Source of the DNA: Candidatus Saccharimonadota bacterium
GTDB taxonomy: Bacteria; Patescibacteriota; Saccharimonadia; Saccharimonadales; Saccharimonadaceae
Direction of reading: 5' to 3'
Length of the DNA stretch: 64,000 nucleotides
NCBI GenBank assembly: GCA_017513185.1
Contig: JAFXGL010000008.1
Location: 97,323 to 161,322 of the forward strand
Made by a program: the position numbers and the translations under genes. Positions 6,804 to 64,000 of the stretch are shown one piece after another (position 1 is the first letter of the stretch; the number at the start of each line of letters is the position of its first letter). The notes beneath the pieces are model-generated. The model saw only the letters and a list, made by a program, of their open reading frames with translations, was not told the origin of the DNA and did no database searches.

Positions 6804-6830
6804 ATTACGCTAATTATGGCGTAATTTTTA
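6804..6830. terminator. Hairpin plus T-tract after tRNA-Val, possibly bidirectional
   Basis: ATTACGC / GCGTAAT stem followed by TTTTTATT. It abuts the stop of the minus-strand gene ending at 6828. Confidence 0.6.
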
Positions 6831-42144: not shown

Positions 42145-43920
42145 ATGGAGCTTAAACACCACTATTTTCGTAGTATCAATTTAAAATTCTTGGCGATAGC
42201 CCTCACTTTACTACTTTCAAACACTCTCTGCGTTTACAAAGCTAGTAGTATCACCGACGAACAAAGGTCTTATCTCAACTGCTCGGACTTTATGTTTGTC
42301 TTTGCTCGCGGCTCCGGCGCCGAACTCAACAGCGACCGTGACTTTAAGCCCTTCAAGGCCGCCGTCGACGAAGTCTTTGGTAGCTCCGACTACTCCTACA
42401 GCTTTTACGAACTTGGCAGTACCGCCTGGAGCGGTCACTCGTACCCCGCACCGGGCATCGGTATCTCCACTTGGAAACGCTTCACTACCTCCATCGGCGC
42501 TCTCCTCTCCGGCGGGGAAATGAACGAATATGGTGACTCGGTCTATTCCGGCACTGTCGAAGCCAAAACTTTCATTTGGCAAATGCGTAGTGTCTGCCCC
42601 AACACCAAAATTGTCCTAGCGGGTTTCAGCCAAGGCGCCCAAGTCGTTTCTAGCGCCTTGCAAATTATCGACCCTAGTTGGATTTATGCCGCTCTCACCT
42701 TTGGTGACCCCAAACTCTACCTTCCAGAAGGGAAGATGAACTGGTTTACTCGTTCCACCGCTGCCTGTCGTAACGAAAATCTCTCCGAATACCGCGCCTT
42801 TGTTCCCGATTGCTATGCTTACCAGGGTATCCTTGGCGGTTATAATCCTTACCAACCCAGCGGCTACGGTGGCAAGCTCAAGGCTTACTGCCAGTGGCAC
42901 GACGTCATTTGCAGCGCCTACATCGACCTCGATAATCTCGCCTATGGTCACGCCTCCTATGCCGAGCAGGGTACCTACAAGCGCGGTGTTCAAGATGTCT
43001 TTAACATGATTGAACCCTCCACCTACGTCCGCCCATCTCAGGACGTCGCCATCCTCTTTGACGTTACTGGCTCCATGCAGCCGCTCCTCGCTCAGTTCCA
43101 ACACGAAGCTATCGCTACGGCCAAAAAGACCCTATCAAAAGGCGGCAAAGTCGCTCTCTACACCTACGGTGACCTCGCAGAGGTCAAGCCGGTCCAGCTC
43201 TGCAATTTTGATACCTGCACTATAGATAATGTCGAAACCTACATCAAAAACCTCACTGTCGACGGCGGTGGCGACTTGCCCGAATCGCTCCTCTCCGCAT
43301 CGTACACTTTGATGCGTGAACTCAAATGGGATATTGGCGCCAATAAATCGCTCGTCGTTCTGACCGATGCCGAATACCACAACCCCGACCGCGACGGTAT
43401 CACACTCGACCAAGTCGTGGAACTTTCCAAATCCATCGACCCGGTCAACTTCTACATTTTGACCGACCCTGCCCACGCTAGCGGCTACCAAGAACTCGCT
43501 ACTCGCACCGACGGCGGTGTCTACACTTCCGACGTCGCTTCGGCTTTTGGCGACCTTGAAGCAGAAATCCTCTCTCGCGACCCCGGCGCCATCTACACCT
43601 CCACTGACCTCCCCGCCCCTACTTCGGCAACCATAACGAACTTGCAAGTCACCAAACTCTCCGACACTGTAGCCGAAGTCTCATTTGATACCGACGGAGT
43701 CATGACCTTCGTCGCGCTAAACGACTACGCTGCCGGCTACACCGAAGAAAAGACCTTCAAGATAGAAGATTTACAAGGCGAGGCCACGGTCTGTCTCTCG
43801 CCCGTCTCCAGTACCGGCTACCGCGGCGACCCAACCTGCGCCAAAATAGAAAAAACTACTGGTCGCGGCGCTGTCGAAATTACTATTCCCAAGGCCCCAA
43901 ACACTGGCAAATCTAGATAA
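42145..43920 (+). CDS. Secreted cutinase-like serine esterase fused to a vWA domain, ending in an IPKAPNTGKSR tag
   Basis: N-terminal signal peptide. Cutinase-type FARGSGAE, nucleophile elbow GFSQGAQV, FGDP and C..HDVIC....GHASY. vWA MIDAS-like DVTGSM and GGGDLPES. No hydrophobic segment follows PNTG. Confidence 0.7.
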   Translation: MELKHHYFRSINLKFLAIALTLLLSNTLCVYKASSITDEQRSYLNCSDFMFVFARGSGAELNSDRDFKPFKAAVDEVFGSSDYSYSFYELGSTAWSGHSYPAPGIGISTWKRFTTSIGALLSGGEMNEYGDSVYSGTVEAKTFIWQMRSVCPNTKIVLAGFSQGAQVVSSALQIIDPSWIYAALTFGDPKLYLPEGKMNWFTRSTAACRNENLSEYRAFVPDCYAYQGILGGYNPYQPSGYGGKLKAYCQWHDVICSAYIDLDNLAYGHASYAEQGTYKRGVQDVFNMIEPSTYVRPSQDVAILFDVTGSMQPLLAQFQHEAIATAKKTLSKGGKVALYTYGDLAEVKPVQLCNFDTCTIDNVETYIKNLTVDGGGDLPESLLSASYTLMRELKWDIGANKSLVVLTDAEYHNPDRDGITLDQVVELSKSIDPVNFYILTDPAHASGYQELATRTDGGVYTSDVASAFGDLEAEILSRDPGAIYTSTDLPAPTSATITNLQVTKLSDTVAEVSFDTDGVMTFVALNDYAAGYTEEKTFKIEDLQGEATVCLSPVSSTGYRGDPTCAKIEKTTGRGAVEITIPKAPNTGKSR

Positions 43921-50048: not shown

Positions 50049-52421
50049 ATGTTCAAAAAAATCATCAAGCGCGACGGCAAAATCGTTGACTTTAAGCTCG
50101 AGAAGATTGTCGACGCCATGACCAAAGCCGGCCAAGCCACCGGCGAATTTGACCACGAGCGCGCCAAAGAACTCGCCACTGAGTTTGAGACCGCTAGCCA
50201 CGAGCTTATTAAGTCTCGCATCCCCACCGTCGAACAAGTCCAAGACGCCGTAGAGAAGGTCCTCAAAGACGCCGGCTTTAAGCGCACCGCCCGTGCCTAT
50301 GCCGACTATCGCCACCACCGCTCTGACGTCCGCATCGCCAAGAGCGACCTTATGAACATCTACCGTACCATCGCCATCGCCGACGCCAGCGAAGATTCCG
50401 ACGTCAAGCGCGGTAATGCTAACGTCGACGGCAACTCCGCCATGGGCAAGATGCTCCAGTTTGGCGCCGAAGGCTCCAAAGTCTTCGCCAAGACTTCCCT
50501 CATGAAGGCCGAATACGCCTATGCCCACGACAATGGCGACATCCACATTCACGACCTCGATTTTTACGCTACCGGCACCCTCACCTGCTGCCAGACCGAC
50601 GTCCTGCGCCTCTTTAAGAATGGCTTTAACACCGGCCACGGGCATCTGCGCACTCCGCAGAGCATTGGCTCCTATGCCGCTCTCGCTGCCATCATCCTCC
50701 AGGCCAACCAAAACGAGCAACACGGCGGCCAGTCTATCCCGCATTTTGACTACGCCATGGCCCCTGGTGTCGACAAGACCTTCCGCAAGGCCCTCCGCCG
50801 CAACCTAGAAAAATACAACGCCTTCGTCGACAAAAAGAACAAAGTTGACGTCCAGATTGGCGACTATATCGAGTTTGGCGACGACGACAAGCTCTCCCGC
50901 CTCAAGGTCCCGAAAGCCGTCATTAAGGCCTCCGTCAAAGACACCGAGAACGAAACTCAGCAAGCCATGGAAGGCTTCATTCACAACCTCAACACCATGC
51001 ACTCCCGCGCTGGCGCCCAGGTGCCATTCACCTCTATCAACTTCGGCACCGACACCTCTCCAGCTGGTCGCCTCGTGAGCAAAATGCTCCTAGAAGCCAC
51101 CGATAAAGGCCTCGGCAAGGGCGAGACCCCCATCTTCCCAATCTCCATCTTCAAGGTTAAAGAGGGCATCAACTACAACCCCGAAGACCCCAACTACGAC
51201 CTCTTCAAGCGCAGCATGGAAGTTTCTGCTAAGCGCCTCTTCCCGAACTTCTGCTTTATTGACGCCCCGTACAACCTCAAATATTACAAACCCGGCGACT
51301 ACCGCACGGAAATCGCCACCATGGGCTGCCGCACTCGCGTCTTTGCCTCTGTCTTCCCGGAATCTGACGGCATCGTCACTGGTCGTGGCAACCTAAGCTT
51401 CACCACCGTCAACCTTGTCCGCCTCGGCATCAAGCACGGCATCGCCACTGGCGAGCGCGAAGAGGCCGATTGGACCGCCTTCTTTGCCGACCTCGACCAC
51501 GTCATGGACCTCTGCGAAGGTGAGCTCTATGAGCGCTTTGAATTCCAGGCCAACCAACACGTCCGCAACTTCCCGTTCCTCATGGGTCAAGGCAACTGGT
51601 TTGGCTCTGAGAAACTCGGCCCCAACGACACCCTGCGCGACGTCATCAAACACGGCACTCTCTCTATCGGCTTCATCGGCCTCGCCGAGACTCTCGTTGC
51701 CATGACTGGCAAGCACCACGGTGAGGACGAAACTGCCCGCGAGCTCGGCCTCGACATAATTTCCCACATGCGCGAAAAATGCGACGAATACTCCAAGAAG
51801 CACCATCTCAACTACTCACTCCTCGCCACTCCCGCCGAAGGTCTCGCCGGCCGCTTCACTAAAATCGACCGTAAGGAATATGGCGTCCTCAAAGGCGTAA
51901 CCGACCGTGATTATTACACCAACTCCTTCCATGTCCCTGTTTACTACCCCATCTCTGCCTTCGAGAAGATTGAGATTGAGGCTCCCTACCACGCCCTCTG
52001 TAACGCCGGCCACATCTCCTACATCGAGCTAGACGGCGACCCGTCCCAGAACATCGACGCTTTCGAGGCTGTCATTCGCAAGATGCACGACTGCGGCATC
52101 GGTTACGGCTCCGTCAACCACCCTGTTGATCGCGACCCAGTCTGTGGCTTCTCCGGCATCATCTCTGGCCACACCTGCCCCTCTTGCGGCCGCGAAGAAG
52201 GCGACCAGCCCTTCGAGCGCCTTCGCCGCATCACCGGCTATCTCGTCGGCACCCTAGATCGCTGGAACGACGGCAAAAAGGCCGAAGAGCGTGACCGCGT
52301 CAAGCACAATGTCGACTGCGACTGCGTTCCCTCCAACGTCGACGGGGTGTATAATGTAGAGGAGAAAGATAAGCGCGAAGTCGAAAAAATGTATGCCGAA
52401 CGCGCACTCGGAAAGGAATAA
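50049..52421 (+). CDS. nrdD: Anaerobic ribonucleoside-triphosphate reductase (class III) with an N-terminal ATP-cone
   Basis: ATP-cone IIKRDGKIVDF, a C-terminal Zn ribbon CPSCG, and glycyl-radical motif RRITGYLVG. Confidence 0.92.
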   Translation: MFKKIIKRDGKIVDFKLEKIVDAMTKAGQATGEFDHERAKELATEFETASHELIKSRIPTVEQVQDAVEKVLKDAGFKRTARAYADYRHHRSDVRIAKSDLMNIYRTIAIADASEDSDVKRGNANVDGNSAMGKMLQFGAEGSKVFAKTSLMKAEYAYAHDNGDIHIHDLDFYATGTLTCCQTDVLRLFKNGFNTGHGHLRTPQSIGSYAALAAIILQANQNEQHGGQSIPHFDYAMAPGVDKTFRKALRRNLEKYNAFVDKKNKVDVQIGDYIEFGDDDKLSRLKVPKAVIKASVKDTENETQQAMEGFIHNLNTMHSRAGAQVPFTSINFGTDTSPAGRLVSKMLLEATDKGLGKGETPIFPISIFKVKEGINYNPEDPNYDLFKRSMEVSAKRLFPNFCFIDAPYNLKYYKPGDYRTEIATMGCRTRVFASVFPESDGIVTGRGNLSFTTVNLVRLGIKHGIATGEREEADWTAFFADLDHVMDLCEGELYERFEFQANQHVRNFPFLMGQGNWFGSEKLGPNDTLRDVIKHGTLSIGFIGLAETLVAMTGKHHGEDETARELGLDIISHMREKCDEYSKKHHLNYSLLATPAEGLAGRFTKIDRKEYGVLKGVTDRDYYTNSFHVPVYYPISAFEKIEIEAPYHALCNAGHISYIELDGDPSQNIDAFEAVIRKMHDCGIGYGSVNHPVDRDPVCGFSGIISGHTCPSCGREEGDQPFERLRRITGYLVGTLDRWNDGKKAEERDRVKHNVDCDCVPSNVDGVYNVEEKDKREVEKMYAERALGKE

Positions 52422-52913
52422 ATGAAGATTAGACTCTCCGGTCCTCTAGAAAGAGATAGTATCGTCAACGGGTACGGCCTTCGGGCCGTGCTCTGGACGC
52501 AAGGCTGCCTTACCCACTGCAAGGGTTGCCAAAACCCCGAGACTTGGGACCTAAACGGTGGCTTTGAAGTGGACGTCGAAGAAATCAAAGACCGCCTCCG
52601 CGCCTTTAAAGGCCAGGCTGGCATCACCTTCTGCGGTGGCGAGCCATTCCTTCAGCCTGAACCCCTGATAGAAATCGCCAAATTTGTACGCGAAGAACTC
52701 GGCTGGAACGTCTGGTCCTTCTCCGGCTACACCTACGAAGCCATTCAGAAAAAGGGTGGCAAGCAATGGGAACTTTTGACCAATCTCGACGCTCTCATTG
52801 ACGGCCCCTTCATCCTCGAGCAGCGCGACTTATCCCTTAAATTCCGCGGCAGTAAAAACCAAAGATTGCTCCACCTAGAACCCGGCACCGGCAAAATCTT
52901 GCAAACCGAGTAA
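52422..52913 (+). CDS. nrdG: Anaerobic RNR activating enzyme (radical SAM)
   Basis: CLTHCKGC (CxxxCxxC) motif. It starts directly after the nrdD stop. Confidence 0.88.
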   Translation: MKIRLSGPLERDSIVNGYGLRAVLWTQGCLTHCKGCQNPETWDLNGGFEVDVEEIKDRLRAFKGQAGITFCGGEPFLQPEPLIEIAKFVREELGWNVWSFSGYTYEAIQKKGGKQWELLTNLDALIDGPFILEQRDLSLKFRGSKNQRLLHLEPGTGKILQTE

Positions 52914-52930
52914 ATTCATTACACTTACGG

Positions 52931-52959
52931 TTGACTTATTACTCCTAAAGTGGTAAAAT
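52931..52959 (+). promoter_or_regulatory. Promoter TTGACT-17nt-TAAAAT (TG-extended) with an approx. 85-nt leader containing an 8-bp hairpin (52999-53020)
   Basis: TTGACT at 52931-52936 and TGGTAAAAT at 52951-52959. The hairpin is GCCAACTT GGGGAG AAGTTGGC. Confidence 0.5.
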
Positions 52960-53048
52960 ACTAGTTACCCTCACTCCAAGAGGCTTTTATATACTTTAGC
53001 CAACTTGGGGAGAAGTTGGCGCACCTTACTATTTAGGAGGAATACGGA

Positions 53049-53735
53049 ATGAAGCGTATTTTTTTGGTTATCCTTGCCCTGAGCCTCTGCGTGTTTATTG
53101 TTCCTGCCTTTGCTGACACCAACGTCAACATCACCACTGGTGATGGCAGTCCGGTCAACGTCACCTCGGTAGATGTCGATGGCTGTGGCAACGACGTTGT
53201 CATTGGTGGTGGAGTCAGCTGTGTCAAACCCGGTAAAACCCCGAGTTGCATCATTATCGATGGTGTCCCCAGCTGCATTGAGCCACCGAACCACTGTGGC
53301 GACCCCGATTACTGCGCCCGCATGGCCCGCCATGGTTGCCTGAAAAACACCGCTCGCGACGTTTTCGGCTATCTTGAAGGCCGGCTTCGTAGCATCGGCT
53401 GGTGGCACAAGGGCTATAAGTTCATCTGGTCTTTCGAGACCCGGGTCATTTATGGCTCTCGCGGCGACAATAATCACTACAGAGACCGCCGACCCATCAC
53501 GTTCTACTGCGTAGAAGATCCATCCATCAAGGTTAAGGCCTACATCAATGTCTACAAGCACGGAAAAGAATACTACACCGTCTTTACTACCGACTTCACT
53601 CCCGCAAAGAAATGTTCGAAGAGCGGCTATGTTTACGCCGACGAGTTGATGATTACCGGCACCTATACCGACGGCTATGCCGCTGTAGATGAGTTTATTG
53701 CCCAGCTCGAACGCCTTTGCGATGACGCCGAATAG
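53049..53735 (+). CDS. Secreted Cys-rich hypothetical protein
   Basis: Signal peptide ending PAFADT. The N-terminal half of the mature protein has 8 Cys and the whole mature protein has 11. AGGAGG Shine-Dalgarno, its own promoter and its own terminator. Confidence 0.55.
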   Translation: MKRIFLVILALSLCVFIVPAFADTNVNITTGDGSPVNVTSVDVDGCGNDVVIGGGVSCVKPGKTPSCIIIDGVPSCIEPPNHCGDPDYCARMARHGCLKNTARDVFGYLEGRLRSIGWWHKGYKFIWSFETRVIYGSRGDNNHYRDRRPITFYCVEDPSIKVKAYINVYKHGKEYYTVFTTDFTPAKKCSKSGYVYADELMITGTYTDGYAAVDEFIAQLERLCDDAE

Positions 53736-53771
53736 GGTTGCGATTGCGAGTAACCCACTTCCCCCTAATCC

Positions 53772-53799
53772 AGCCTCCCTCTCCCCAGGGAGGCTTTTT
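53772..53799 (+). terminator. Rho-independent terminator
   Basis: AGCCTCCCT CTCCCC AGGGAGGCT followed by TTTTT. Confidence 0.8.
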
Positions 53800-53801
53800 C
53801 A

Positions 53802-53810
53802 TGGTATAAT
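53802..53810 (+). promoter_or_regulatory. Extended -10 (TGGTATAAT) 7 nt upstream of the trmD ATG
   Basis: Read directly from the sequence. Confidence 0.55.
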
Positions 53811-53817
53811 AATATAT

Positions 53818-54477
53818 ATGCCAAAAATCAAATTCACGATTATTACGCTTTTTCAGGAAGCTCTCGAGCCCTATCTTAACGCCTCTATGATGTGGAAGGC
53901 CAAAGACAAGGGAATCGCCGAGTTTGATTTTGTGAACTTGCGCGACTTTGGCCTCGGCCCGCACAAGTCCGTCGACGACACGCCTTACGGCGGTGGCGAC
54001 GGCATGCTTCTCCGCTGCGAACCGGTCTTCGCCGCCATCGAGTCTGTCAAAGCCAAAGACCCGAGCGCTAAAGTAATTTTGCCCACTCCGGTCGGAGCCA
54101 CCTGGGAACAGCCCTTAGCTAGAGAACTCGCCGCAGCTGGCGGACATTACATTATTCTTTGCCCTCACTACGAAGGCTACGACGAACGGATTTTGTCGCT
54201 CGTCGACTACAAAATCTCCCTCGGCAAATTTGTTTTGACCGGCGGCGAACTCCCCGCCCTCGCCATCATCGATTCCATCGTCCGCCTCATCCCCGGCGTC
54301 CTCGGCGGCGAGACTAGCGCCGAGATTGAAAGCTTTTCCGACGGCGACAACCTCGAATATCCCCAATACACCAAACCCGCCGACTTTCGCGGCATGAAGG
54401 TCCCTGACGTCCTCCTTTCTGGTAACCACGGCGAAATCGCCAAATGGCGCAAAGAGCATGAGTCTCAAGCTAACTGA
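53818..54477 (+). CDS. trmD: tRNA (guanine37-N1)-methyltransferase
   Basis: FTIITLFQEALEPYL, DDTPYGGGDGM, ILCPHYEGYDERI and SLGKFVLTGGELPA motifs. The start is set at 53818. Confidence 0.9.
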   Translation: MPKIKFTIITLFQEALEPYLNASMMWKAKDKGIAEFDFVNLRDFGLGPHKSVDDTPYGGGDGMLLRCEPVFAAIESVKAKDPSAKVILPTPVGATWEQPLARELAAAGGHYIILCPHYEGYDERILSLVDYKISLGKFVLTGGELPALAIIDSIVRLIPGVLGGETSAEIESFSDGDNLEYPQYTKPADFRGMKVPDVLLSGNHGEIAKWRKEHESQAN

Positions 54478-56491
54478 CTCGGTCGCGGCCATTAAAGGCA
54501 TCGGCCCTAAAACCGAAAAAATCCTGAATAAAGCCGGCATTTGTACTGTTCGCGACCTGCTCTACTACCTTCCTCGTACTTACGAAAACTTCACCACTAC
54601 CACCAAACTTTCTGATCTCCGCCCCGGTAAAGTCGTGATTCGCGGCCAAATTTCTGACCTCCACACCTCGCGCACTCACCGTCGCAACCTCACCATCACC
54701 GAGGGTATCATTCGCGACAACACCGACGCCGTCCGCGTGGTGTGGTTTAACCAGCCCTACCGCGCCAAACAATTCATCGAAGGCAAAGATTATTATTTCA
54801 CCGGCAATTACGATCTAAGCCGTGGCCGTTACCAGCTCACCTCACCCCGCGCCGAACTCGCTGCCGACGTCGACAAACTCGCTGGCGGCAACAAATTCCA
54901 GCCCGTCTACCCCGTGAGAGGCAGTTTCAAAAGCGAAGGCTTCCGCAAAATCTTTGAAACCCTTCGCTCCGAATTTGCCTTCATCCCTGATTTGCTGCCC
55001 AAAATCAAACCCGGTACCCGTGCCGACGCCCTCTTTAAAGCCCACTTCGCCGAGTCCGACGCCGACGTCAAAGCCGCCCGTAGCTACCTCGCCTACGAAG
55101 AACTTTTTGAGCTTATCCTGGCCTCCCAGCTCAATAAACAGGAAAACCAAAAGCTCAGGGCCGAGCAAATCCCCTTCGTCGCTAACGACATTAAGCGGGC
55201 TGTGAGTAGTCTCAAATTTAACCTCACCAATGCTCAACGCCTCGCCACCTTTGAAATCCTTAAAGACCTAGAAAAATCCACTCCTATGAACCGCCTGCTA
55301 CAGGGCGACGTCGGCTCCGGCAAAACTGTCGTCGCCGCGCTCGCCGCGCTCTCGGTCGCCAAAGCCGGCCAGCAGACCGCCCTCCTGGCCCCCACCGCCA
55401 TCTTAGCCTCCCAACATGCCGAATCGCTCGCCGAGCTGCTGACGCCTCTTGGTATCAACGTCGCCCTCCTCACCGGTGCCACCAAGCGCAAATCCTCCCT
55501 TAAAAAACACATTAAAGACGGCGATGTTGATCTTGTAGTCGGCACCCATGCCCTCCTCACCGACGACACGGAGTTTAAAAATCTCGCCCTCACCATCATC
55601 GACGAACAGCACCGCTTCGGCGTCAACCAGCGTCAAAAACTCCTCGAAAAAACCGTGGCACGGACCGGCCTCGCGCCGCATCTGCTCATGATGACCGCCA
55701 CCCCTATCCCACGTTCGCTCCAGCTCGCGATTTTTGGCGACCTCGACATCTCTACCTTAAACGAACTTCCCAAGGGTCGCCAACCCGTCACCACCAAAGT
55801 CATCAAAGAAATCAATTTCACTGACGACCTCTACCCCAAAGTTCGCGCCTATCTAGCAAAAGGCCAGCAAGTTTACTGGATTTGTAAAAAAATCGAAGAA
55901 GGTGGCCCTTCTGAGGCCGTTTCCGTCAAAAAACAGGCAGAAAAATTGCAAAAAATCTTCCCCAAAGAAAAAATCGCCTTCCTCCACGGCCGCATGAAAC
56001 CCGAAGAAAAAGACCAAATTATGCAACGATTCGCAGAAAACAAAATCCACATCCTCGTCTCCACCACCGTGGTGGAGGTTGGCGTCAACGTACCAAATGC
56101 CAACATCATGGTGATTATGGACGCAGAAAATTACGGCCTCGCCCAGCTACACCAGCTGCGCGGCCGCGTCGGACGCGGGCAATCCGCCGCCGAATGCTAC
56201 CTCGTCAGCTCCGCCGACCAGCCCTCTCGCCGTCTAAAAGAACTAGAAAAATCCACCGACGGTTTTTACCTCGCCGAGGCCGACCTCAAGCTTCGCGGCC
56301 CTGGAGAAATTTACGGCTCACTCCAGCACGGCGCCATGAACCTCCAGTTCGCCAGCCTCTCCGACACTCACCTCATCGCCGCCGCCAGCAAGGCCGCTAA
56401 AGCCTTCGCTAAAACTCCGGACCAGCTTAAAGACTATCCCGAACTCATGACCTGCATAAAACGTTATCAACAGCTCACCACATTAAACTAA
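54458..56491 (+). CDS. recG: ATP-dependent DNA helicase RecG
   Basis: Wedge domain N-terminus, GDVGSGKT, DEQHRFG, and QLRGRVGRG. Confidence 0.92.
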   Translation: MSLKLTDSVAAIKGIGPKTEKILNKAGICTVRDLLYYLPRTYENFTTTTKLSDLRPGKVVIRGQISDLHTSRTHRRNLTITEGIIRDNTDAVRVVWFNQPYRAKQFIEGKDYYFTGNYDLSRGRYQLTSPRAELAADVDKLAGGNKFQPVYPVRGSFKSEGFRKIFETLRSEFAFIPDLLPKIKPGTRADALFKAHFAESDADVKAARSYLAYEELFELILASQLNKQENQKLRAEQIPFVANDIKRAVSSLKFNLTNAQRLATFEILKDLEKSTPMNRLLQGDVGSGKTVVAALAALSVAKAGQQTALLAPTAILASQHAESLAELLTPLGINVALLTGATKRKSSLKKHIKDGDVDLVVGTHALLTDDTEFKNLALTIIDEQHRFGVNQRQKLLEKTVARTGLAPHLLMMTATPIPRSLQLAIFGDLDISTLNELPKGRQPVTTKVIKEINFTDDLYPKVRAYLAKGQQVYWICKKIEEGGPSEAVSVKKQAEKLQKIFPKEKIAFLHGRMKPEEKDQIMQRFAENKIHILVSTTVVEVGVNVPNANIMVIMDAENYGLAQLHQLRGRVGRGQSAAECYLVSSADQPSRRLKELEKSTDGFYLAEADLKLRGPGEIYGSLQHGAMNLQFASLSDTHLIAAASKAAKAFAKTPDQLKDYPELMTCIKRYQQLTTLN

Positions 56492-56512
56492 AATAAAGGA
56501 AAATATATCACC

Positions 56513-56992
56513 ATGCGCATAATTTCCGGAAAATACAAAAACAGGGAACTAAAGAGCCCCAACTCTACCAAGACCCATCCCATGGGCGAACGCGAACGCC
56601 TCGCCATCTTTAACATGCTGGGTAATCTAGAAGGCAAAACCATCCTCGACCTCTTCGCCGGCACTGGTGCCCTCGGCCTTGAAGCTCTCTCTCGTGGCGC
56701 CGCCTCCGCCACCTTTGTGGAAAAAGATTATAAAGCATTAGAATGTTTGAAGGACAATTTAAAAAACGTCGATAATTATGAGGTTATAAAAGGCGATGTT
56801 TATAAAATAAAACTAAACAAAAAATACGACATAGTTTTTATAGATCCCCCATATGACGCCTTTGATAGGCAAGCCCTAAAGTTTAAAAAACTTCTCCGGG
56901 AAAATGGCGTCTTGGTCGTTTCTTCTCCGCAGCCCATTGACGAAACTTCTCGCAAATACGCTAATTGTTATGTAACACTTGTCTTTAATTAG
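56513..56992 (+). CDS. rsmD: 16S rRNA (guanine966-N2)-methyltransferase RsmD
   Basis: MRIISGKYKNREL, DLFAGTGALGLEALSRGA and FIDPPY motifs. Confidence 0.85.
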   Translation: MRIISGKYKNRELKSPNSTKTHPMGERERLAIFNMLGNLEGKTILDLFAGTGALGLEALSRGAASATFVEKDYKALECLKDNLKNVDNYEVIKGDVYKIKLNKKYDIVFIDPPYDAFDRQALKFKKLLRENGVLVVSSPQPIDETSRKYANCYVTLVFN

Positions 56993-57051
56993 CTATTATG
57001 GTATAATAGACTCAATAGACATTCGGTGGGCCAATAATTAGGAGTTTTATT

Positions 57052-57450
57052 ATGTACGGTCAAACCGAAGACCAAGAAAAACAGAAGAAAAAGATTATCA
57101 TCATCTCCCTTATCATGGGGATTATCATCATCATTTTGATTGGTGTTTTGATTAACGCTATCACCACCAAAAACAAGAATCAACAACTCGCCGACAACAA
57201 CGAAACCTCTCTTATCCGCGAAGACGAAAAGAAATCCGAACCCACCAAAGTAGAAGAAAACACTAAGTCCGAAGAAAAAGCGGAAGACTCCAAGCTAGAA
57301 CCGGTTGCTAACGACCAAAAACAAGAGACCGTCACGCCGAAGTCCGAGACCAAATCTGACCTCCCGCAGACCGGTGCCGGCTCTGTCCTCGGCCTTGCCC
57401 TTCTCGCTGGCTCCGCCACCACTTACGTCTTCTCTAAAAAGCGTCAATAG
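57052..57450 (+). CDS. Small LPXTG-anchored surface protein
   Basis: N-terminal hydrophobic signal. C-terminus reads LPQTGAGSVLGLALLAGSATTYVFSKKRQ, a canonical sortase signal. AGGAG Shine-Dalgarno. Confidence 0.7.
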   Translation: MYGQTEDQEKQKKKIIIISLIMGIIIIILIGVLINAITTKNKNQQLADNNETSLIREDEKKSEPTKVEENTKSEEKAEDSKLEPVANDQKQETVTPKSETKSDLPQTGAGSVLGLALLAGSATTYVFSKKRQ

Positions 57451-57452
57451 TC

Positions 57453-57483
57453 AAAAAGCTAGGCTAAAAACCTAGCTTTTTTA
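57453..57483 (+). terminator. Rho-independent terminator
   Basis: AGCTAGG CTAAAAA CCTAGCT followed by TTTTTT. Confidence 0.75.
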
Positions 57484-57495
57484 TGTTTTCTAAAG

Positions 57496-57501
57496 TATAA
57501 T
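57496..57501 (+). promoter_or_regulatory. -10 box TATAAT 8 nt upstream of the ATG at 57510
   Basis: Read directly from the sequence. Confidence 0.45.
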
Positions 57502-57509
57502 CATTTTAT

Positions 57510-58562
57510 ATGGCTGAAAAACCTGAAGACAAAAAACCATCTTTTTTAAAGCGCAAGCGCGTCAAACAGCTGTTAATCATTGCCTTCATCATCTTCAACA
57601 TCGCCATCATCTACTGGACCGCCTCTAAAGAGCTCAACCGTGACGAAGGCCTCCCCGAAGCCCACTTCACTTGGTGGCTCCTTTTGCTCGCCATCGTCGC
57701 CTTCGTTGGGGCTTTGGCTGCTGATATTTACAAATATTACATGCTCATCCGTCACTTCACAAAGAAAAAAGACCTGAAGCTTGCCGCTCAGACCGTCTTC
57801 CTTGGCCGTTACTACGACAACATTACTCCGAGTGCCGTCGGCGGTCAGCCCTTCCAGATTCACCACATGCATAAACACGGCAAAATCGACAGCGAACACG
57901 CCGCCATGATTCCTATCATCTGCTTCGTTTCGCTCCAATTCGCCTACGTCGTTCTTTGCTTCCTTACGCTAGTCTTTGGCGCCAATATCGTCCTCTCCGA
58001 CGTCACTTATGCCGCCAGCTTCGTCGGCATTTTGCTCATGGCTTTCGCTCCGGGTACAGTCATTTTCTTCGCAGTAAAACCCAAAGCAGCCAAAAAGATT
58101 GCCTCGGCGATTTTGAAATTTGGACACAAGCTTCATATCGTTCGCCACCTTGAAGAAACCGAAGCCAAAGCCCTCGGAGAAATAGAAAAATACGCCGACA
58201 CTGTCCGTCGCGTTCTTAAAAACAAAAAGCTCCTCGTAAGAGTCCTTGCTCTCTCGTTTGCTTATCAGCTCTGCCTTTACTCGATTCCATTCCTCGTCGT
58301 CCGCGCTTTTGGTGGCGACGTTGGCTATCTCCCCGCCACCATGACCGCCCTCACCATTCAGGCCGCCATCACCTTCATCCCCACCCCCGGCAACGCCGGT
58401 GCGGCCGAAGGCTCGTTTTACCTCGTCTTTGCCAGCCTCGGCAGCGGCAACACCTTTTGGGCTATGTTTACCTGGCGCTTCTTTACCTACTACGCTTTCA
58501 TCGCTCTCGGCGGCCTCGTCTATCTAGAAATGGCTTGGCAAAAAAAGAAAAAACACGTATAA
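57510..58562 (+). CDS. Polytopic membrane protein, UPF0104 / MprF-flippase-like (LPG_synthase_TM-like) family
   Basis: About 8 hydrophobic helices and the motif NITPSAVGGQPFQI typical of this family. Confidence 0.6.
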   Translation: MAEKPEDKKPSFLKRKRVKQLLIIAFIIFNIAIIYWTASKELNRDEGLPEAHFTWWLLLLAIVAFVGALAADIYKYYMLIRHFTKKKDLKLAAQTVFLGRYYDNITPSAVGGQPFQIHHMHKHGKIDSEHAAMIPIICFVSLQFAYVVLCFLTLVFGANIVLSDVTYAASFVGILLMAFAPGTVIFFAVKPKAAKKIASAILKFGHKLHIVRHLEETEAKALGEIEKYADTVRRVLKNKKLLVRVLALSFAYQLCLYSIPFLVVRAFGGDVGYLPATMTALTIQAAITFIPTPGNAGAAEGSFYLVFASLGSGNTFWAMFTWRFFTYYAFIALGGLVYLEMAWQKKKKHV

Positions 58563-58572
58563 TATATTCTAT

Positions 58573-58657
58573 GCCCGGGTGGTGGAATTGGTAGACACGC
58601 TAGCCTTAGGAGCTAGTGCCTCACGGCTTGCAAGTTCGATTCTTGTCCCGGGCACCA
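58573..58657 (+). tRNA. tRNA-Leu (anticodon UAG), long variable arm, CCA encoded
   Basis: Acceptor GCCCGGG/CCCGGGC and anticodon stem CTAGC/GCTAG with loop CTTAGGA. A TATAAT at 58558-58563 lies only 9 nt upstream. Confidence 0.88.
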
Positions 58658-58670
58658 CAACTTGACACGA

Positions 58671-58696
58671 TACGCCAAATATGGCGTAATTTTTAT
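58671..58696 (+). terminator. Hairpin plus T-tract after tRNA-Leu
   Basis: TACGCC AAATAT GGCGTA followed by ATTTTTATT. It shares the 18-nt string TATGGCGTAATTTTTATT with 6815-6832. Confidence 0.5.
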
Positions 58697-58728
58697 TATA
58701 ATATTCTCACCAAAAATGTTTATTATTA

Positions 58729-58737
58729 TGCTAAAAT
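58729..58737 (+). promoter_or_regulatory. Extended -10 (TGCTAAAAT) 6 nt upstream of the ATG at 58744
   Basis: Read directly from the sequence. Confidence 0.5.
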
Positions 58738-58743
58738 AAAAGC

Positions 58744-60198
58744 ATGAGTAAAAAGCTTTTTGCGATTATTGTGCTATCATTATTTATCGCCCTTGCTGCG
58801 CCTCTCCTCTTCTCCTCTGCTCATGCCACCACCGTCACCTACTGCTCCGGCTCCGACGACCCCACCGAAGACGACCCTTACGACCCCACCCAGCCCGTCA
58901 CCACTCAAGACGGCTCTGTCCCCTCTGCCCTTAAGAAATACCTTCTCGACTCCGGTTACAGCGAATCTTCCGCCAATGGCATCATGGGCAACATTAGTAT
59001 CGAATCTTGCGGTTACAAGCTCCGCGTTTACAATAACAGCTGCAGCTCCCTCGCTCCAGACGATTTCGTCGCCTATAAAAATGGCGCCAAAACTTTCTCC
59101 GGCGGCTACGGCCTCGCGCAGTGGACTTCCGCCGGCCGCGTTAAAAACCTCCAGGAACACGCCGACAACGTCATTAAAAAATCCGTCAACACTCTAGACG
59201 TCCAGGCTAGCTTTATAGTCAAAGAGCTCAAGTCTAGCTCTTACAAGCTTTACCCCTCCAAGCTCAATGCCATGACCATGGAGGAAGTCGTATGGGTAAT
59301 CATGCGTGACTACGAGACGCCAGAGTCCGTCATTTGCACCCAGGCCTCTAGCAGCAGCTGTAAAAACGAAGCTTCCGCCCGTAACATCTCCCTCTCTACC
59401 CTGCTAAACAATACCACCAAATATGCCAGCGCCTACAAGGCCTATACTAACCGCCTCACCGAGGCCAAGAACGCCAAGTCCATCGCCGCTACCACCCAGG
59501 AAGACCCAGGCACCAGTGACCCTACAGACCCTACTACCCCTACTGACCCTACCACCCCCACTACTCCCACCGGCAGCACTTCCGGCGCCCTCGGCAAACA
59601 ATCTTCTAGTGGCTTTTACGCCCAGTGCCGCGCCGACTATTCTAGCAAATCTTGGCGTAAGACCACCACTACCATCTGCGCTTCCGGCTGCTCGCTCATT
59701 TCTGTAGCTAACGCCGCCAAATACCTCAACGTCACACCCAACAACCCAGGCACCTTGGCCGACTGGACCAAAGGCGTCATTAGCGGCGAGTCCGATACCG
59801 GCTGGAACGGCTCCGTCAAAAAGACTATCTCGCACCTCAACATGAAATGGGACGGCAGTTACCTGTGGTCTAACTACAACACTTCCGCTGCTAGCAAAAT
59901 CACCCAAATCCGCCAAGTCCTTGCGGCGGGCGGTGTCATTATCGCCGGTGGCGATCGCAATCGCAGTAGCAACCCCAACCGCCAAACCATCGACTGCACC
60001 AGCTCTAGCAATCTCAACGCTGGTCTCTGCGTCTTTAGCAATAACGGCCACTTCATCGCCATCATCGGCATCACCTCCGACGACAAGCTCATCGTTGCCA
60101 ACGGTGCCAATGGTCGCAACGGCACCTCCAGCAACGACAAAATTCCTGCCGCCAACGTCCTAAAGTTTTCTAACAAAGCCATAGGAGTTTACAAATAA
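58744..60198 (+). CDS. Secreted two-domain cell-wall hydrolase: lysozyme-like N-domain plus papain-like (C39-like) Cys peptidase C-domain
   Basis: N-terminal signal peptide. NGIMGNISIESCG and GYGLAQWTSAG motifs. A PT-rich linker. The C-domain has Q...ICASGCSLISVANA (Cys) and NNGHFIAIIGI (His). It is a paralog of the 7406-8989 product. Confidence 0.65.
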   Translation: MSKKLFAIIVLSLFIALAAPLLFSSAHATTVTYCSGSDDPTEDDPYDPTQPVTTQDGSVPSALKKYLLDSGYSESSANGIMGNISIESCGYKLRVYNNSCSSLAPDDFVAYKNGAKTFSGGYGLAQWTSAGRVKNLQEHADNVIKKSVNTLDVQASFIVKELKSSSYKLYPSKLNAMTMEEVVWVIMRDYETPESVICTQASSSSCKNEASARNISLSTLLNNTTKYASAYKAYTNRLTEAKNAKSIAATTQEDPGTSDPTDPTTPTDPTTPTTPTGSTSGALGKQSSSGFYAQCRADYSSKSWRKTTTTICASGCSLISVANAAKYLNVTPNNPGTLADWTKGVISGESDTGWNGSVKKTISHLNMKWDGSYLWSNYNTSAASKITQIRQVLAAGGVIIAGGDRNRSSNPNRQTIDCTSSSNLNAGLCVFSNNGHFIAIIGITSDDKLIVANGANGRNGTSSNDKIPAANVLKFSNKAIGVYK

Positions 60199-60821
60199 TG
60201 GACAATTACAGCACCCAAATCTTCCCGCAGGTCAACCCAGGCGAAGCCGAAAAACCGCGCCTCCCCAAAGCCGCCATCATCGCCGGCATCGGTCTGTTTG
60301 TGATTTTAATCGGCGCCGGCGTCTTTCTCATGCTAAATAAGGGCGACATTCAAAGTCTCGACAATGAGGCCGAGCCAGCGCTCGAATACTCCAAAGAAGG
60401 CTCGCGGCTGCTCAGTCTAGACAAGCTCATGGACTATGGCCTCACTAGCGAACAATACAGCAAAGTCTGCGCCGCCATTGAATCCGCCCTCGACCGCGGC
60501 GACAAAGACAGTAAATATTTTGACTATATTTATGACAGCTTCGTTACTGAAAAATCTTTCGCTAGTGAAGACAGCGGACTCTCCGAGGAGGAGCGCCAAG
60601 CCATTCTCGCCGCCATCAGCGCCAACGACCACACCGCCGAAAAATACGGCCCGGAGGGAGAGACTAATACCGAAACCCACGCCGACAAAGAGCAGCTCAG
60701 TATCATCACTTTCCAGCTCATCTCCGACACCGAAAAAGTCTACACCGTCCGCTTCAACGCCGCCCTTGGCGCCAAAGACCTCAGCGTAGAAGTTAAAGAT
60801 TCCGAAGGAAACACCCTTTAA
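60198..60821 (+). CDS. Bitopic membrane protein, paralog of the 6828-7406 product
   Basis: TM helix AAIIAGIGLFVILIGAGVFLML. TAATG overlaps at both ends. Confidence 0.6.
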   Translation: MDNYSTQIFPQVNPGEAEKPRLPKAAIIAGIGLFVILIGAGVFLMLNKGDIQSLDNEAEPALEYSKEGSRLLSLDKLMDYGLTSEQYSKVCAAIESALDRGDKDSKYFDYIYDSFVTEKSFASEDSGLSEEERQAILAAISANDHTAEKYGPEGETNTETHADKEQLSIITFQLISDTEKVYTVRFNAALGAKDLSVEVKDSEGNTL

Positions 60822-63800
60822 TGAGCGAGCCAAACGAGGAACAGAAAAAAGCTAGGGCTGCCAAGCGAGAGCTGGCCGCCGCCGAAAAAGCCAGTAGCGA
60901 CCGCAAGAAAAAGGCCACTGTTGCCGGTGCTGCGATAGTAGCTACTGTCGCCACCGCTGGCGCTGCTGCACCCGCTGCCGGTGCTGCTGCTGGTGGGGCT
61001 GCCGCGGGAACTGCTGGCGCCGCTGGTACAGCCGGGGCTGGGGCCGCCGCTGCAGGCGAAGCGGCTGGTGCTACGGCCGGAGCTGCTGGTACTGCTGGTG
61101 CCGCTGGAGAAACTGCCGGTGCCGCTCAAACTGCCAACGCCGCTAGCAAATCTGCCGATGCCGCCCAAAAGCTCAAAAACGCCGAAGAAAAAGCCAAAAA
61201 GTTTAAAGAAAACTACGACAAAGTCAAAGATAAAGTCGACAAAATCGAAGATTTATCCGGTGGCGAAGAAGAAGTCGAAGACGAAGACGAAAGCGAAGAA
61301 GAGCAAACCGCCCAACCTATCGCTACCCCCAAGAAAAAGCGTTCCAAAATCGCCACGTTCTTTGTGGTCGGCATCATCGGTATTTGCGCCCCGCTACTTT
61401 TCCTCACCGCTGCTATCCTTTACCCAGTCCATCTCGCCGTCACGATTGGCGACAAAGTCGTGACCTTTTTCACTACTATTTTCGAGAAAGCTAAAAATGT
61501 CTTTTGCGAACTTCTCGGCATCGGCAGTGTGCCTGACGCTACCGCTGAGACCTTTGAGGAATACGGCATAGAAATCGGCGCTATCACCGAGACTGGTGCT
61601 TTCATCCAAACCAACCGCGTCATCGCCAGCGGCAAAGAATATCAAATCGCCGCGAGCGACGGCACCGTCGTCCGCGCCGAGAGCGGGGAACTATCCGTCC
61701 GCTTTAAGGACAAAGTCATCTCCGCCGACCAACTAGAAAATGAACTAGAAACTAACCCGGAGTTTTACCAAGCCTTTTACAACGCCATCGACGACTGCCG
61801 CAAAAAGCACGATGTCACTTCTGAAGACAACTCCGTCAAAAAAGCTGCCTACGACGACCTCAACATTGGCCTAGACCCCTACGCCGCCCTAGAGGAAAGC
61901 GAAATTGAAGACCCCCAGGCCGCCTTTGAAGAAATCTTTACTAGCCTACTAGACGGCACCGCTACCTCCACCACTATCGGCACCGTTAACTACGGTTCCG
62001 CTGGCGAAAACGAAGAGCCTCTGCCCCAAGGCGACACCAGCAACGCCGGCCTCCAAGCCGAAGAATACATCCGCGAAATTGCCAAGAAAACCACTGCCGA
62101 CGGTGGCGACACTAAAAAAGCCACGGAAAAAGCCGCCGCCCTTCTCAACGCCGCCGTTTCTGCCAACGAGCCATATTATGCCGCTCGCGCCTACGCCGGC
62201 ATCATGGAAGCCATCGACCTCAACAAGCCCGGCCAAACTGGCTCCGGCCCTGTCAACGAAGCCATGAACTTGCTCAGTACCGAGACTGAGAGTCAAACTA
62301 TCGACATCGACACCGGCAAAAACAAGAGTGTCACCGGCTCTGCCGTCAATTCGCCCAACCTCAGCGCCGTCACTTATAACTCAGAATATTCTAAAGAAAC
62401 CGCCGAAGGCTACTCTAGAGATCGCGCCATGTTCGTCTCCTCCGTAGAAATAGCCAAAAAATACCCAGAAAACGGCGAAGATTGTGTCAAAATCAACGAC
62501 GTCTACAATGCCACCAACAACACCATCGTAGCCATTAGCAACGCTCTAGAGAAGTTTTGGCGCTGGATTGTCTCCATTATTTCCGGCCGCGCCGAAGCCG
62601 ATGCAGACCTATTAGTGGACGCCACCAAAGATAGCATCTCTACCGCCGTCTTTTCTAAACCGTCAGAAACCACCGTGGGCGAGGCCCTAGGCGAGAGGCT
62701 AGTGGAAGGCGCCGCCTATTACAACACCATGGTTTCGCGTGAAGTCGGTGGCTCCACCGCTTCCGATAAAAACGCCATCGCTGTCTACAACAAAATGGTT
62801 ACCGACTCCATCGCCCAAAAAGCCAAGGCCGACCGTGCTACCAAGAGCCCGTTTGACGCCTCCTCGCCCTATACCTTCCTCGGTAGCATCGTCAACAGTC
62901 TGCAGCCCATCGTCAAAAACACCGGCTCCGTCGTCTCTAAAGTCTCCTCGCTAAATAATCTCACCGCCAAATCCGTCGCTCGCATCACCACCGGCGCCTA
63001 TGCCGAAGGCAACGAGGAAACTTATCAAATGCAAAACGGCAACTGCAGCACGGAAAACTCCATCGGCGGCGAAGGCGACATCTATTGCAACGAGGCTCCA
63101 TCCTTTGACCCCTCCACCTTCTCCATGACTCTCACCGACCTCCAAGACAAAATCGCCGGCGACCTCGACGAGCGCAAACGTATCAAAGACGGCACCGACG
63201 CAGCACGCTATCTCATTCTCCACACCGAGCGCGAATCTACTCCGGGCGTCAAGGATGCCACCGTCTGCGAAGCTATCGCCAAGGAAATTTACCGCCCCTC
63301 CATCCTCGAAAGCATTTGGAACTTCTTTGCTGGCTCGCCAGACATCGCCAGCATTTGTAGCCGCCCCGAAGTAAAAGATTACGCCACCGGCAAAGAATAT
63401 GCCAACACTGCCGAAAACGCCAACTGGAACACCAAATATAAATACTACCAGGGTTACACATTGGAAGTTTACGTGATGGATCTCTTTGGCTACTATAGCG
63501 AAATCTGCGACGAAGAAAACCCCGTTGTCGCCTACAAGAACGAATATTACACCAAACACCCCAAAGACAACTCTCCGGAAGGTATCCTGGCTCGTCGCAC
63601 CGGCATGACCAAAGACGAAGTTATCGCCGGCATTGAGGCCGTCCGCTACCTCGCCTATCTCAATAACTACGACCCCGCCACCCGCTATGCCTTTGGTGGT
63701 GCACCAGAGCTTCGTCCGCTCCACTTTGAAGATGATGGAGCTGTCATTGCCACCACCTTTGCCGACGAAAAACGCCGCATTGTCTATGCCGACCGCCGCA

Positions 63801-63829
63801 ACCGCAAACGCGAAATGTTAGTGGTTTAA
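60821..63829 (+). CDS. Large (1002 aa) membrane protein with an N-terminal Ala/Gly/Thr tract; family not recognised
   Basis: Charged N-terminus, an approx. 85-aa A/G/T tract, an acidic stretch, TM helices FFVVGIIGICAPLLFLTAAILYPV, and a large C-terminal region sharing blocks with the 43941 product. Confidence 0.65.
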   Translation: MSEPNEEQKKARAAKRELAAAEKASSDRKKKATVAGAAIVATVATAGAAAPAAGAAAGGAAAGTAGAAGTAGAGAAAAGEAAGATAGAAGTAGAAGETAGAAQTANAASKSADAAQKLKNAEEKAKKFKENYDKVKDKVDKIEDLSGGEEEVEDEDESEEEQTAQPIATPKKKRSKIATFFVVGIIGICAPLLFLTAAILYPVHLAVTIGDKVVTFFTTIFEKAKNVFCELLGIGSVPDATAETFEEYGIEIGAITETGAFIQTNRVIASGKEYQIAASDGTVVRAESGELSVRFKDKVISADQLENELETNPEFYQAFYNAIDDCRKKHDVTSEDNSVKKAAYDDLNIGLDPYAALEESEIEDPQAAFEEIFTSLLDGTATSTTIGTVNYGSAGENEEPLPQGDTSNAGLQAEEYIREIAKKTTADGGDTKKATEKAAALLNAAVSANEPYYAARAYAGIMEAIDLNKPGQTGSGPVNEAMNLLSTETESQTIDIDTGKNKSVTGSAVNSPNLSAVTYNSEYSKETAEGYSRDRAMFVSSVEIAKKYPENGEDCVKINDVYNATNNTIVAISNALEKFWRWIVSIISGRAEADADLLVDATKDSISTAVFSKPSETTVGEALGERLVEGAAYYNTMVSREVGGSTASDKNAIAVYNKMVTDSIAQKAKADRATKSPFDASSPYTFLGSIVNSLQPIVKNTGSVVSKVSSLNNLTAKSVARITTGAYAEGNEETYQMQNGNCSTENSIGGEGDIYCNEAPSFDPSTFSMTLTDLQDKIAGDLDERKRIKDGTDAARYLILHTERESTPGVKDATVCEAIAKEIYRPSILESIWNFFAGSPDIASICSRPEVKDYATGKEYANTAENANWNTKYKYYQGYTLEVYVMDLFGYYSEICDEENPVVAYKNEYYTKHPKDNSPEGILARRTGMTKDEVIAGIEAVRYLAYLNNYDPATRYAFGGAPELRPLHFEDDGAVIATTFADEKRRIVYADRRNRKREMLVV
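60917..61175 (+). repeat. Low-complexity GCN/GGN-rich coding tract (Ala/Gly/Thr)
   Basis: Translates to ATVAGAAIVATVATAGAAAPAAGAAAGGAAAGTAGAAGTAGAGAAAAGEAAGATAGAAGTAGAAGETAGAAQTANAAS. Confidence 0.8.
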
Positions 63830-63861
63830 AAATTAAAAAGGGTGTATAATTAAAAAAGGAT

Positions 63862-64000
63862 ATGGTTAAAACTAACAAGAAAAAGCATCTGAAAATAGTT
63901 TCTGTTATTTTGTCGCTTTGTTTGTTGTTTGCCGCCGTCATCCCGACTGCTAATGCTTCGGCCACTGGTAGCTTTGACAGCTCTTGTGCTGGCCCGGCTG
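63862..64000 (+). CDS. Secreted protein, N-terminal fragment (runs off the window)
   Basis: MVKTNKKKHLKIVSVILSLCLLFAAVIPTANASA signal peptide. TGTATAAT at 63843-63850 and AAGGA upstream. Confidence 0.5.
   Translation, partial: MVKTNKKKHLKIVSVILSLCLLFAAVIPTANASATGSFDSSCAGPA

Follow-up and report, generated by a model that had tools for sequence, protein, structure and literature searches.

In Gram-positive conjugation systems a VirB6-like protein is paired with a two-domain VirB1-like hydrolase, as in ConG-CwlT of ICEBs1, TcpH-TcpG of pCW3 and PrgH-PrgK of pCF10. The rvh type IV secretion system (T4SS) of the Rickettsiales has several extended VirB6 paralogues, and its genes are scattered in islands. 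The Gram-positive pairs are summarised, and the scattering of the rvh genes is stated, by Quinonero-Coronel et al. 2025 (PMC12102498), who place the T4SS of Patescibacteria beside the monoderm conjugation systems. According to the same paper, the patescibacterial systems are without relaxases, many VirB6 and VirB1 homologues lie away from virB4, and 'peptidase and lysozyme homologues' 3' of virB4 are essential in Southlakia. The essential T4SS of Southlakia epibionticum ML1 was defined as SEML1_0006-0019 (Wang et al. 2023, PMC10633639). The tables of that study list the VirB6-like SEML1_0013 and SEML1_0011, PrgI (SEML1_0010), SEML1_0009 and VirB4 (SEML1_0008), together with SEML1_0007, a hypothetical protein of 1113 amino acids (aa) in which only a C-terminal DD-peptidase-fold domain was recognised, SEML1_0006, which has PF18013 and a cysteine-proteinase fold, and SEML1_0005, a small exported protein. 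SEML1_0005-0008 were essential by transposon insertion sequencing (Tn-seq), and the tables hold one PF18013 protein only (PMC10633639). The Saccharibacteria T4SS was the first T4SS shown to be essential for its carrier, and its role is described as "completely unknown" (PMC11665869, PMC12857230). Here we describe an operon of four genes, which begins near the end of a 64,000-nt stretch of DNA from a Candidatus Saccharimonadota bacterium (the window) and which, on balance, probably duplicates, as an accessory ('satellite') module, the envelope-spanning part of this machine without its ATPases.

All coordinates refer to the window, of which positions 58744-63829 were under study. Gene 1 (58744-60198, 484 aa) codes for a putative secreted two-domain peptidoglycan hydrolase and gene 2 (60198-60821, 207 aa) for a bitopic membrane protein. 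Gene 3 (60821-63829, 1002 aa), which we call LARGE, codes for a protein with a predicted cytoplasmic N-terminal tail, one transmembrane (TM) segment and an outer, mainly helical domain of about 790 aa. A preliminary description of this DNA had reported three open reading frames (ORFs) chained by two TAATG junctions, and we found them as reported, on the plus strand, with stop and start sharing one base at each junction. It had also treated the three genes as the whole unit. The coupling is real, but the operon has a fourth gene after these three, which was overlooked because the window ends inside it. Gene 4 starts on the same strand after a 33-nt gap from the stop of gene 3, and its 5' end occupies 63862-64000. 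We read its full length in contig JAFXYS010000001.1 (GCA_017541625.1, a Candidatus Saccharibacteria metagenome-assembled genome), which was found by an exact match of the gene 3 protein. The locus in that contig, L008, is identical to window 50821-64000 (L008 position + 50820 = window position). There gene 4 spans L008 13042-15303, codes for 753 aa and ends at window-equivalent position 66123. The best terminator of the region lies directly 3' of its stop, at window-equivalent 66128-66150 on the plus strand, and the unit therefore comprises four genes; the co-transcription signals predict that genes 1 to 4 form one transcription unit. EF-Tu and other housekeeping genes lie 3' of gene 4 in the full contig.

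In the arrangement that we favour, the hydrolase would open the cell wall locally, which is the VirB1 role, and the small protein of gene 2 would hold or control it at the membrane. The VirB6-like product of gene 4 would form the membrane channel. LARGE, with a one-helix anchor and a disulfide-bearing helical outer domain, would build that part of the channel which crosses the wall or faces outward, or would scaffold the hydrolase there. The module would plug into a core that is driven by VirB4 and encoded at another site of the genome, and would thus give an alternative version of the machine.

This reading is carried by the neighbourhoods of LARGE in other genomes. We scanned one genome per GTDB species with a six-row LARGE alignment, which gave 138 relatives, and kept 80 loci. 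These counts are lower bounds, since the scan depends on two conserved motifs and is biased to members that keep both. Almost all kept loci were labelled Saccharibacteria, and they came from rumen, gut and oral samples. ORFs were called in all loci, hidden Markov models (HMMs) were built, neighbours were clustered, and the contexts of 91 LARGE proteins were scored. The core T4SS was the context in 19 certain and 6 probable cases (class A), where the genes are ordered VirB6-like, PrgI, TrsD-like, VirB4, LARGE, D1 (a PF18013 hydrolase) and D2 (a small protein). Conserved homologues of gene 3 were found in the virB4 clusters of at least 19 loci, and LARGE lay directly 3' of virB4 in at least 19 species-representative genomes. 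In L025, Pfam matched PrgI (E 2.3e-11) and also VirB4, the latter as P-loop_TraG (E 1.7e-29). HMMs for PrgI and the TrsD-like protein made from this locus found their targets in 19-20 core loci, and they found no VirB3/PrgI or TrsD-like protein in the window or in L008. Since the HMMs of genes 1 and 2 were too narrow for the core-cluster versions, D1 and D2 were seeded separately and compared by hhalign. D1 carries PF18013 (E 2.2e-19) and aligns with the gene 1 family at an hhalign probability of 95.8%. At the family level, these gene orders show a linkage of LARGE, a PF18013 hydrolase and a small bitopic protein to virB4, in that order. LARGE is most likely the SEML1_0007 family, because the order of SEML1_0013-0005 is the class A order.

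The window belongs to a second group of ten lineages in which LARGE adjoins a VirB6-like gene and VirB4 is missing (class D: the window, L001, L004, L006, L011, L014, L015, L036, L047 and L090). The hydrolase and small-protein pair is found in the window, L001 and L004, while L011 has a small protein at the cut edge and L047 a D1-type hydrolase; gene order varies among the modules. In neighbour-joining (NJ) trees without support values, the core and satellite VirB6 proteins formed two clean clades, and gene 3 of the window fell in a satellite LARGE clade distinct from the core clade. In the window, genes 3 and 4 each appear to come from an old, separate paralogue lineage, and the two lineages travel as a pair. 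We also saw single contigs that carry a core-T4SS LARGE and a second copy about 6-25 kb away (L043 and L050 on CAMZHH010000001.1, L071 and L075 on CALCYQ010000001.1), so several LARGE paralogues per Saccharibacteria genome seem usual.

Gene 4 is predicted to be an extended polytopic membrane protein of the VirB6/TrbL type. Its sequence shows a signal peptide, five or more hydrophobic or TM segments and a hydrophilic tail of about 430 aa. It carries a precomputed match to PF19590 (TrbL_3), PF04610 (TrbL/VirB6) was matched by 5 of its 15 aligned relatives (best E 5.1e-5), and the family heads the virB4 clusters. PF19590 was absent from the current Pfam result for gene 4, which is likely a difference between library versions. 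The VirB6 family profile found nothing among PDB sequences, and tblastn of the gene 4 membrane domain found nothing in 72,556 plasmids. We also considered a Wzy-type polymerase, an identity given by the name in the source record only, and rejected it, as there was no NCBIfam match at E up to 0.01 and no Wzy or O-antigen match in Pfam.

Gene 1 is predicted to be a Sec-exported enzyme that joins a lysozyme domain of the phi29 gp13 type to a Cys/His peptidase domain. The signal peptide (aa 1-28) is followed by the PF18013 lysozyme-like domain (aa 65-195), a Thr/Pro linker and the peptidase domain (aa ~312-451). In Pfam, PF18013 (Phage_lysozyme2) was matched with E 3.2e-17 and 63.5 bits against a cut-off of 28.2, and Peptidase_C39_2 with E 1.3e-4 and 23.0 bits, just below the cut-off of 24. 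Five close homologues all keep E87 of the GNxxxES motif, C316 and H436, and the GH motif of the peptidase domain is kept in 21-22 of the 26 hydrolase (HYD) and D1 sequences. SLT/lysozyme-like domains (PF13702/PF01464), NlpC/P60 and CHAP were not found in gene 1 by Pfam at E up to 0.01. There was no significant sequence match in the PDB; the lysozyme domain of phage phi29 gp13 is the only solved relative by sequence, with a weak match (E 0.48) in which the motifs align. The secreted, bifunctional wall hydrolase of the preliminary description is supported by the PF18013 match, the Cys/His peptidase domain and the three invariant residues. Gene 1 combines predicted glycosidase and peptidase domains as a VirB1-type hydrolase does, and D1 of the core clusters carries the same Pfam domain.

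Gene 2 has a single TM segment (aa 20-49), and about 155 of its residues lie outside. Few homologues could be detected, and its family lies directly 3' of the hydrolase in every locus found by its HMM. Its topology fits that of a VirB8-like bitopic protein, which would have an NTF2-like fold, and the hhalign alignment to D2 covers the TM helix only. Like gene 3, it had been described as belonging to no recognised family, and searches of Pfam, NCBIfam and PHROG were indeed empty for both.

LARGE is a large family without prior characterisation and, judged by its structural model, probably of novel fold. Gene 3 had no sequence match in the PDB either, and a word-index homologue search returned 4 proteins only, with the Ala/Gly tract in or out. 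We searched 1.84 billion representative proteins with HMMER, using a profile built from six relatives, and obtained 1132 LARGE clusters (clusters at 50% identity) at E up to 0.001, of which 464 reached E up to 1e-30. Most members have 850-1050 aa and were matched over nearly their full length. With a 6-row alignment AlphaFold2 gave a predicted local distance difference test score (pLDDT) of 42; a 76-row alignment was used instead and gave a confident model with a mean pLDDT of 82.8 and a predicted template modelling score (pTM) of 0.84. The model is mainly helical with one small beta domain, and Foldseek found nothing significant for it, the best hits having E 0.24 in PDB and 0.25 in BFVD. The motif R-x3-SPFD-x2-S-x2-TF-x-GS and a pair of Cys 14 residues apart are invariant or nearly so in the family. 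Since a basic patch precedes the TM segment and the Cys pair is nearly invariant, the large domain probably lies outside the cytoplasm.

The residue counts agreed with the composition first given for gene 3, that is, an Ala/Gly/Thr tract, an acidic stretch and an outer region of roughly 800 aa. Residues 31-115 (60911-61165, plus strand) form the low-complexity tract, with 45 Ala, 17 Gly and 9 Thr in 85 residues, and the acidic stretch comes after it. A hydrophobic segment (aa 175-210; 61343-61450, plus strand) has KKKRSK just before it, as in the positive-inside rule. About 790 residues are C-terminal to it, and it is the one strong TM segment of the protein. The Ala/Gly tract is a lineage-specific appendage, as it is present in only 5 of 86 family members. 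Some longer members have added enzyme domains, Metallophos and GDSL lipase (P0089, P0104), and a weak CHAP add-on was seen in L043 9401-12736 and L075 7054-10362. Like the DD-peptidase fold of SEML1_0007, these are catalytic extensions that vary while the scaffold stays the same, and they may hold a clue to its function. A divergent VirB6/TrbL/TcpH identity of gene 3 was rejected, since hhalign to the VirB6 family gave a probability of 0.6% and the protein has one strong TM segment instead of at least five.

Several points weigh against a satellite T4SS module. VirB4, PrgI, a pilin array and VirD4 were all lacking in the window and in 10 kb on either side, where there was also no match to P-loop_TraG, AAA_10 or VirB4. 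Gene 4 itself has no match in the current Pfam and NCBIfam libraries, and its NCBI name is 'oligosaccharide repeat unit polymerase' (MBR3595155.1). Beyond the TM helix, hhalign detected no homology between gene 2 and D2. The trees are simple NJ trees with no support values, and SEML1_0007, although most likely a LARGE member, is placed there by synteny. Most LARGE members are found in non-T4SS contexts, so the family is not exclusive to T4SS. In 28 cases (class B) the order by Pfam is MetRS, aquaporin, LARGE, PheS, PheT, FtsE and FtsX. In a further 12 (class C), which include the window copy at 43941, the LARGE gene is preceded by that of a cutinase/VWA protein and followed by those of a P-type ATPase and NrdD, and it is sometimes duplicated in tandem.

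For the window and 10 kb on each side, we can agree with the preliminary description that no ATPase, coupling protein, relaxase or phage gene is nearby. Its view that the locus does not look like a T4SS holds as far as VirB4 and VirD4 are absent from the flanks. It fails in the main, because gene 4 of the same operon is VirB6/TrbL-like and the gene 3 family is fixed directly after virB4 in the core clusters. It had named, as a result that would change this view, a large protein of the VirB6/TcpH family with VirB4 or VirD4 in the flanking genome. We found half of this: a VirB6-like gene is next to LARGE, but LARGE is not VirB6 and the flanks have neither VirB4 nor VirD4.

The satellite reading also has a more far-reaching version, which we offer tentatively and consider rather unlikely. 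LARGE would be a new structural class of T4SS protein specific to epibiotic monoderms, membrane-anchored, of novel fold and forming the wall-crossing or host-facing part of the channel. Several interchangeable sets of LARGE, VirB6 and hydrolase, kept by Saccharibacteria in the core and in the satellites, would refit a single VirB4 motor to suit the host or the stage of life, or the satellite would act as an ATPase-independent conduit at the host contact.

Since most LARGE copies lie in housekeeping contexts, the main rival is a wall-remodelling or surface complex that works independently of a T4SS. LARGE would be an envelope scaffold of general use in Saccharibacteria that recruits or regulates hydrolases, much as coiled-coil hydrolase partners such as PcsB do with FtsEX; the product of gene 4 would have been co-opted as a membrane anchor, and the complex would serve growth, division or surface upkeep. 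The 28 copies between MetRS/aquaporin and PheS-PheT-FtsE-FtsX fit this explanation, as do the hydrolase-type add-ons of some members (weak CHAP, Metallophos, GDSL) and the lack of an ATPase nearby. However, the PheST/FtsEX synteny may simply mirror the conserved gene order of small genomes. The satellite LARGE clade almost always adjoins a VirB6 paralogue, and the virB4 cluster is the only context with clear functional partners. We regard wall remodelling as an improbable explanation of the operon, though one to be taken seriously.

Doubtful to a greater degree is the idea that genes 1 to 3 are a stand-alone, ATPase-free device which cuts the glycan and the peptide of the host wall at the attachment site and is unrelated to type IV secretion. 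The organism comes from an epibiotic group, gene 1 is predicted to be exported with a glycosidase and a peptidase domain, and its lysozyme domain is of the kind with which phage phi29 gains entry to Gram-positive cells from the exterior. The preliminary description had suggested the breaching or remodelling of a host cell wall, a role that the module may have. This idea nevertheless leaves out the VirB6-like gene 4, and it leaves out the trio of gene 3, hydrolase and small protein that is linked to virB4 in other genomes.

A remnant of a prophage or tail-like particle, with a 'phage tail lysozyme' and a long helical protein resembling a tape measure, is hardly credible and can be regarded as effectively excluded: it is suggested by the Pfam name of PF18013, by weak PHROG matches of gene 1 and by tape-measure proteins among the non-significant fold matches, but genes 2-4 have no PHROG match, a search of 2.9 million viral contigs gave no relative, the best fold match was no better than E 0.25 (BFVD), phage structural, integrase and packaging genes are absent from the 84 kb inspected, and the chromosomal position is conserved across many species.

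The DNA 5' of the operon, all features of which are on the plus strand, carries a tRNA-Leu(UAG) gene (58573-58657). The sigma-70-like site TTGGCA-17-TATAAT (11/12) at 58535-58563 (L008 7715-7743) belongs to this tRNA and not to gene 1. A terminator-like hairpin with a T-run lies 3' of the tRNA (58671-58688; L008 7851-7868) and is predicted to separate the operon from upstream transcription. The AT-rich spacer up to gene 1 (58689-58743), read by eye, contains the -10-like hexamers TATAAT (58697-58702) and TAAAAT (58732-58737) and is a possible promoter for a leaderless or short-leader mRNA. The 'leaderless-type promoter' claimed earlier was not confirmed, as a consensus scan between tRNA-Leu and gene 1 gave no sigma-70-like site and -10-like hexamers only, and there is no Shine-Dalgarno sequence 5' of gene 1.

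Components of the operon recur in the window, and sequence matches confirmed that they are a multi-copy family, as had been proposed from the pair at 6828-8989 and the LARGE paralogue at 43941-46619. On the minus strand, a paralogous hydrolase (7406-8989, 527 aa, PF18013 E 4.7e-20) is 32% identical to gene 1 (E 6e-55), and a paralogous small bitopic protein (6828-7406, 192 aa) matches gene 2 with E 1e-12. The TAATG overlap of genes 1 and 2 recurs in this pair, as does the ATGGACAAT start. Just upstream of it are three tandem paralogues of 295, 318 and 315 aa without a Pfam match (1636-2523, 3416-4372 and 4382-5329, plus strand), whose cluster, c44, also occurs near LARGE modules in L001 and L013. 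The second LARGE copy (43941-46619, plus strand, 892 aa) is 30% identical to gene 3 along about 370 C-terminal residues (E 9e-30). A protein with cutinase and VWA domains is encoded directly 5' of it (42145-43920, plus strand). Seven other genomes show the same pairing of cutinase/VWA with LARGE, and in some of them LARGE is duplicated in tandem; since the pairing recurs, the two may form a further functional pair. The P-type ATPase ORF, for which 46493 is listed as the start, shares 127 nt (46493-46619) with the 3' end of this LARGE copy on the same strand, so the ATPase probably starts further 3'.

Envelope-active proteins abound in the window. A plus-strand ORF at 57052-57450 encodes a protein of 132 aa that begins with a TM helix, continues with a stretch rich in Lys and Glu and ends in LPQTG followed by a hydrophobic segment and a basic tail; it looks like a sortase-anchored surface protein (weak PF00746, E 0.005). 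A 1442-aa protein with Listeria-Bacteroides repeats (28933-33261, plus strand) is likely a surface protein, and a separate wall hydrolase with LysM and CHAP is encoded at 26292-27359 (plus strand). Of 32 bins of 2 kb, 31 have a negative GC skew (cumulative -5.9), and most genes are on the plus strand; the window seems to be part of a single replichore over its full length.

Neither the LARGE family nor the satellite modules of VirB6 and LARGE are described in PMC10633639, PMC12102498, PMC11665869 or PMC12857230. What is new is a very large family, of apparently novel fold, which is a fixed neighbour of virB4 and is thereby tied to an essential machine. New as well is a second VirB6 lineage, probably old, with its own copy of LARGE and sometimes its own wall hydrolase. 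If the satellites are alternative channel parts, they would give a handle on how these epibionts get across two cell walls and adjust to different hosts. The LARGE family can also serve as an annotation marker for T4SS-linked genes that are now called 'hypothetical' or, as gene 4, 'oligosaccharide repeat unit polymerase'.

When the operon is compared with known systems, phi29 gp13 (PDB 3CSR), the archetype of PF18013, resembles gene 1 in its GNxxxES and GxxQWT motifs and in joining a lysozyme to a peptidase, so that glycan and peptide would both be cut. Unlike gene 1, it is a virion protein and has an M23 metallopeptidase in place of the Cys/His peptidase, and the match between the two is not significant. 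Like the locus described here, the rvh system is found in bacteria that depend on a host and have reduced genomes, its VirB6-type genes are duplicated, and the parts of the T4SS are divided among loci. In contrast to the window module, the rvh system belongs to diderms and has another VirB6 lineage, and it is not known to have a LARGE family or a hydrolase attached to the paralogues. The conjugation pairs of Gram-positive bacteria are alike in placing a polytopic VirB6-like protein beside a secreted hydrolase with glycan-cutting and cysteine-peptidase domains. However, the hydrolase of the window combines PF18013 with a C39-like domain and not, as CwlT, TcpG and PrgK do, an SLT/lysozyme-like domain with NlpC/P60 or CHAP; there is no adjacent ATPase, and LARGE is extra. 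The Southlakia T4SS differs in that the module of the window has no VirB4, PrgI, TrsD-like protein or pilin array nearby. The order in the window is hydrolase, small protein, LARGE and VirB6, its VirB6 and LARGE fall in separate paralogue clades, and gene 3 lacks the C-terminal DD-peptidase-fold domain of SEML1_0007. The two systems nevertheless share an extended VirB6-like protein, a PF18013 and cysteine-proteinase hydrolase, a small exported protein and the absence of a relaxase. In Southlakia an unannotated membrane protein of about 1000 aa comes right after virB4, and this probable LARGE member, the hydrolase and the small protein follow one another there in the same order as in related loci such as L001 and L025.

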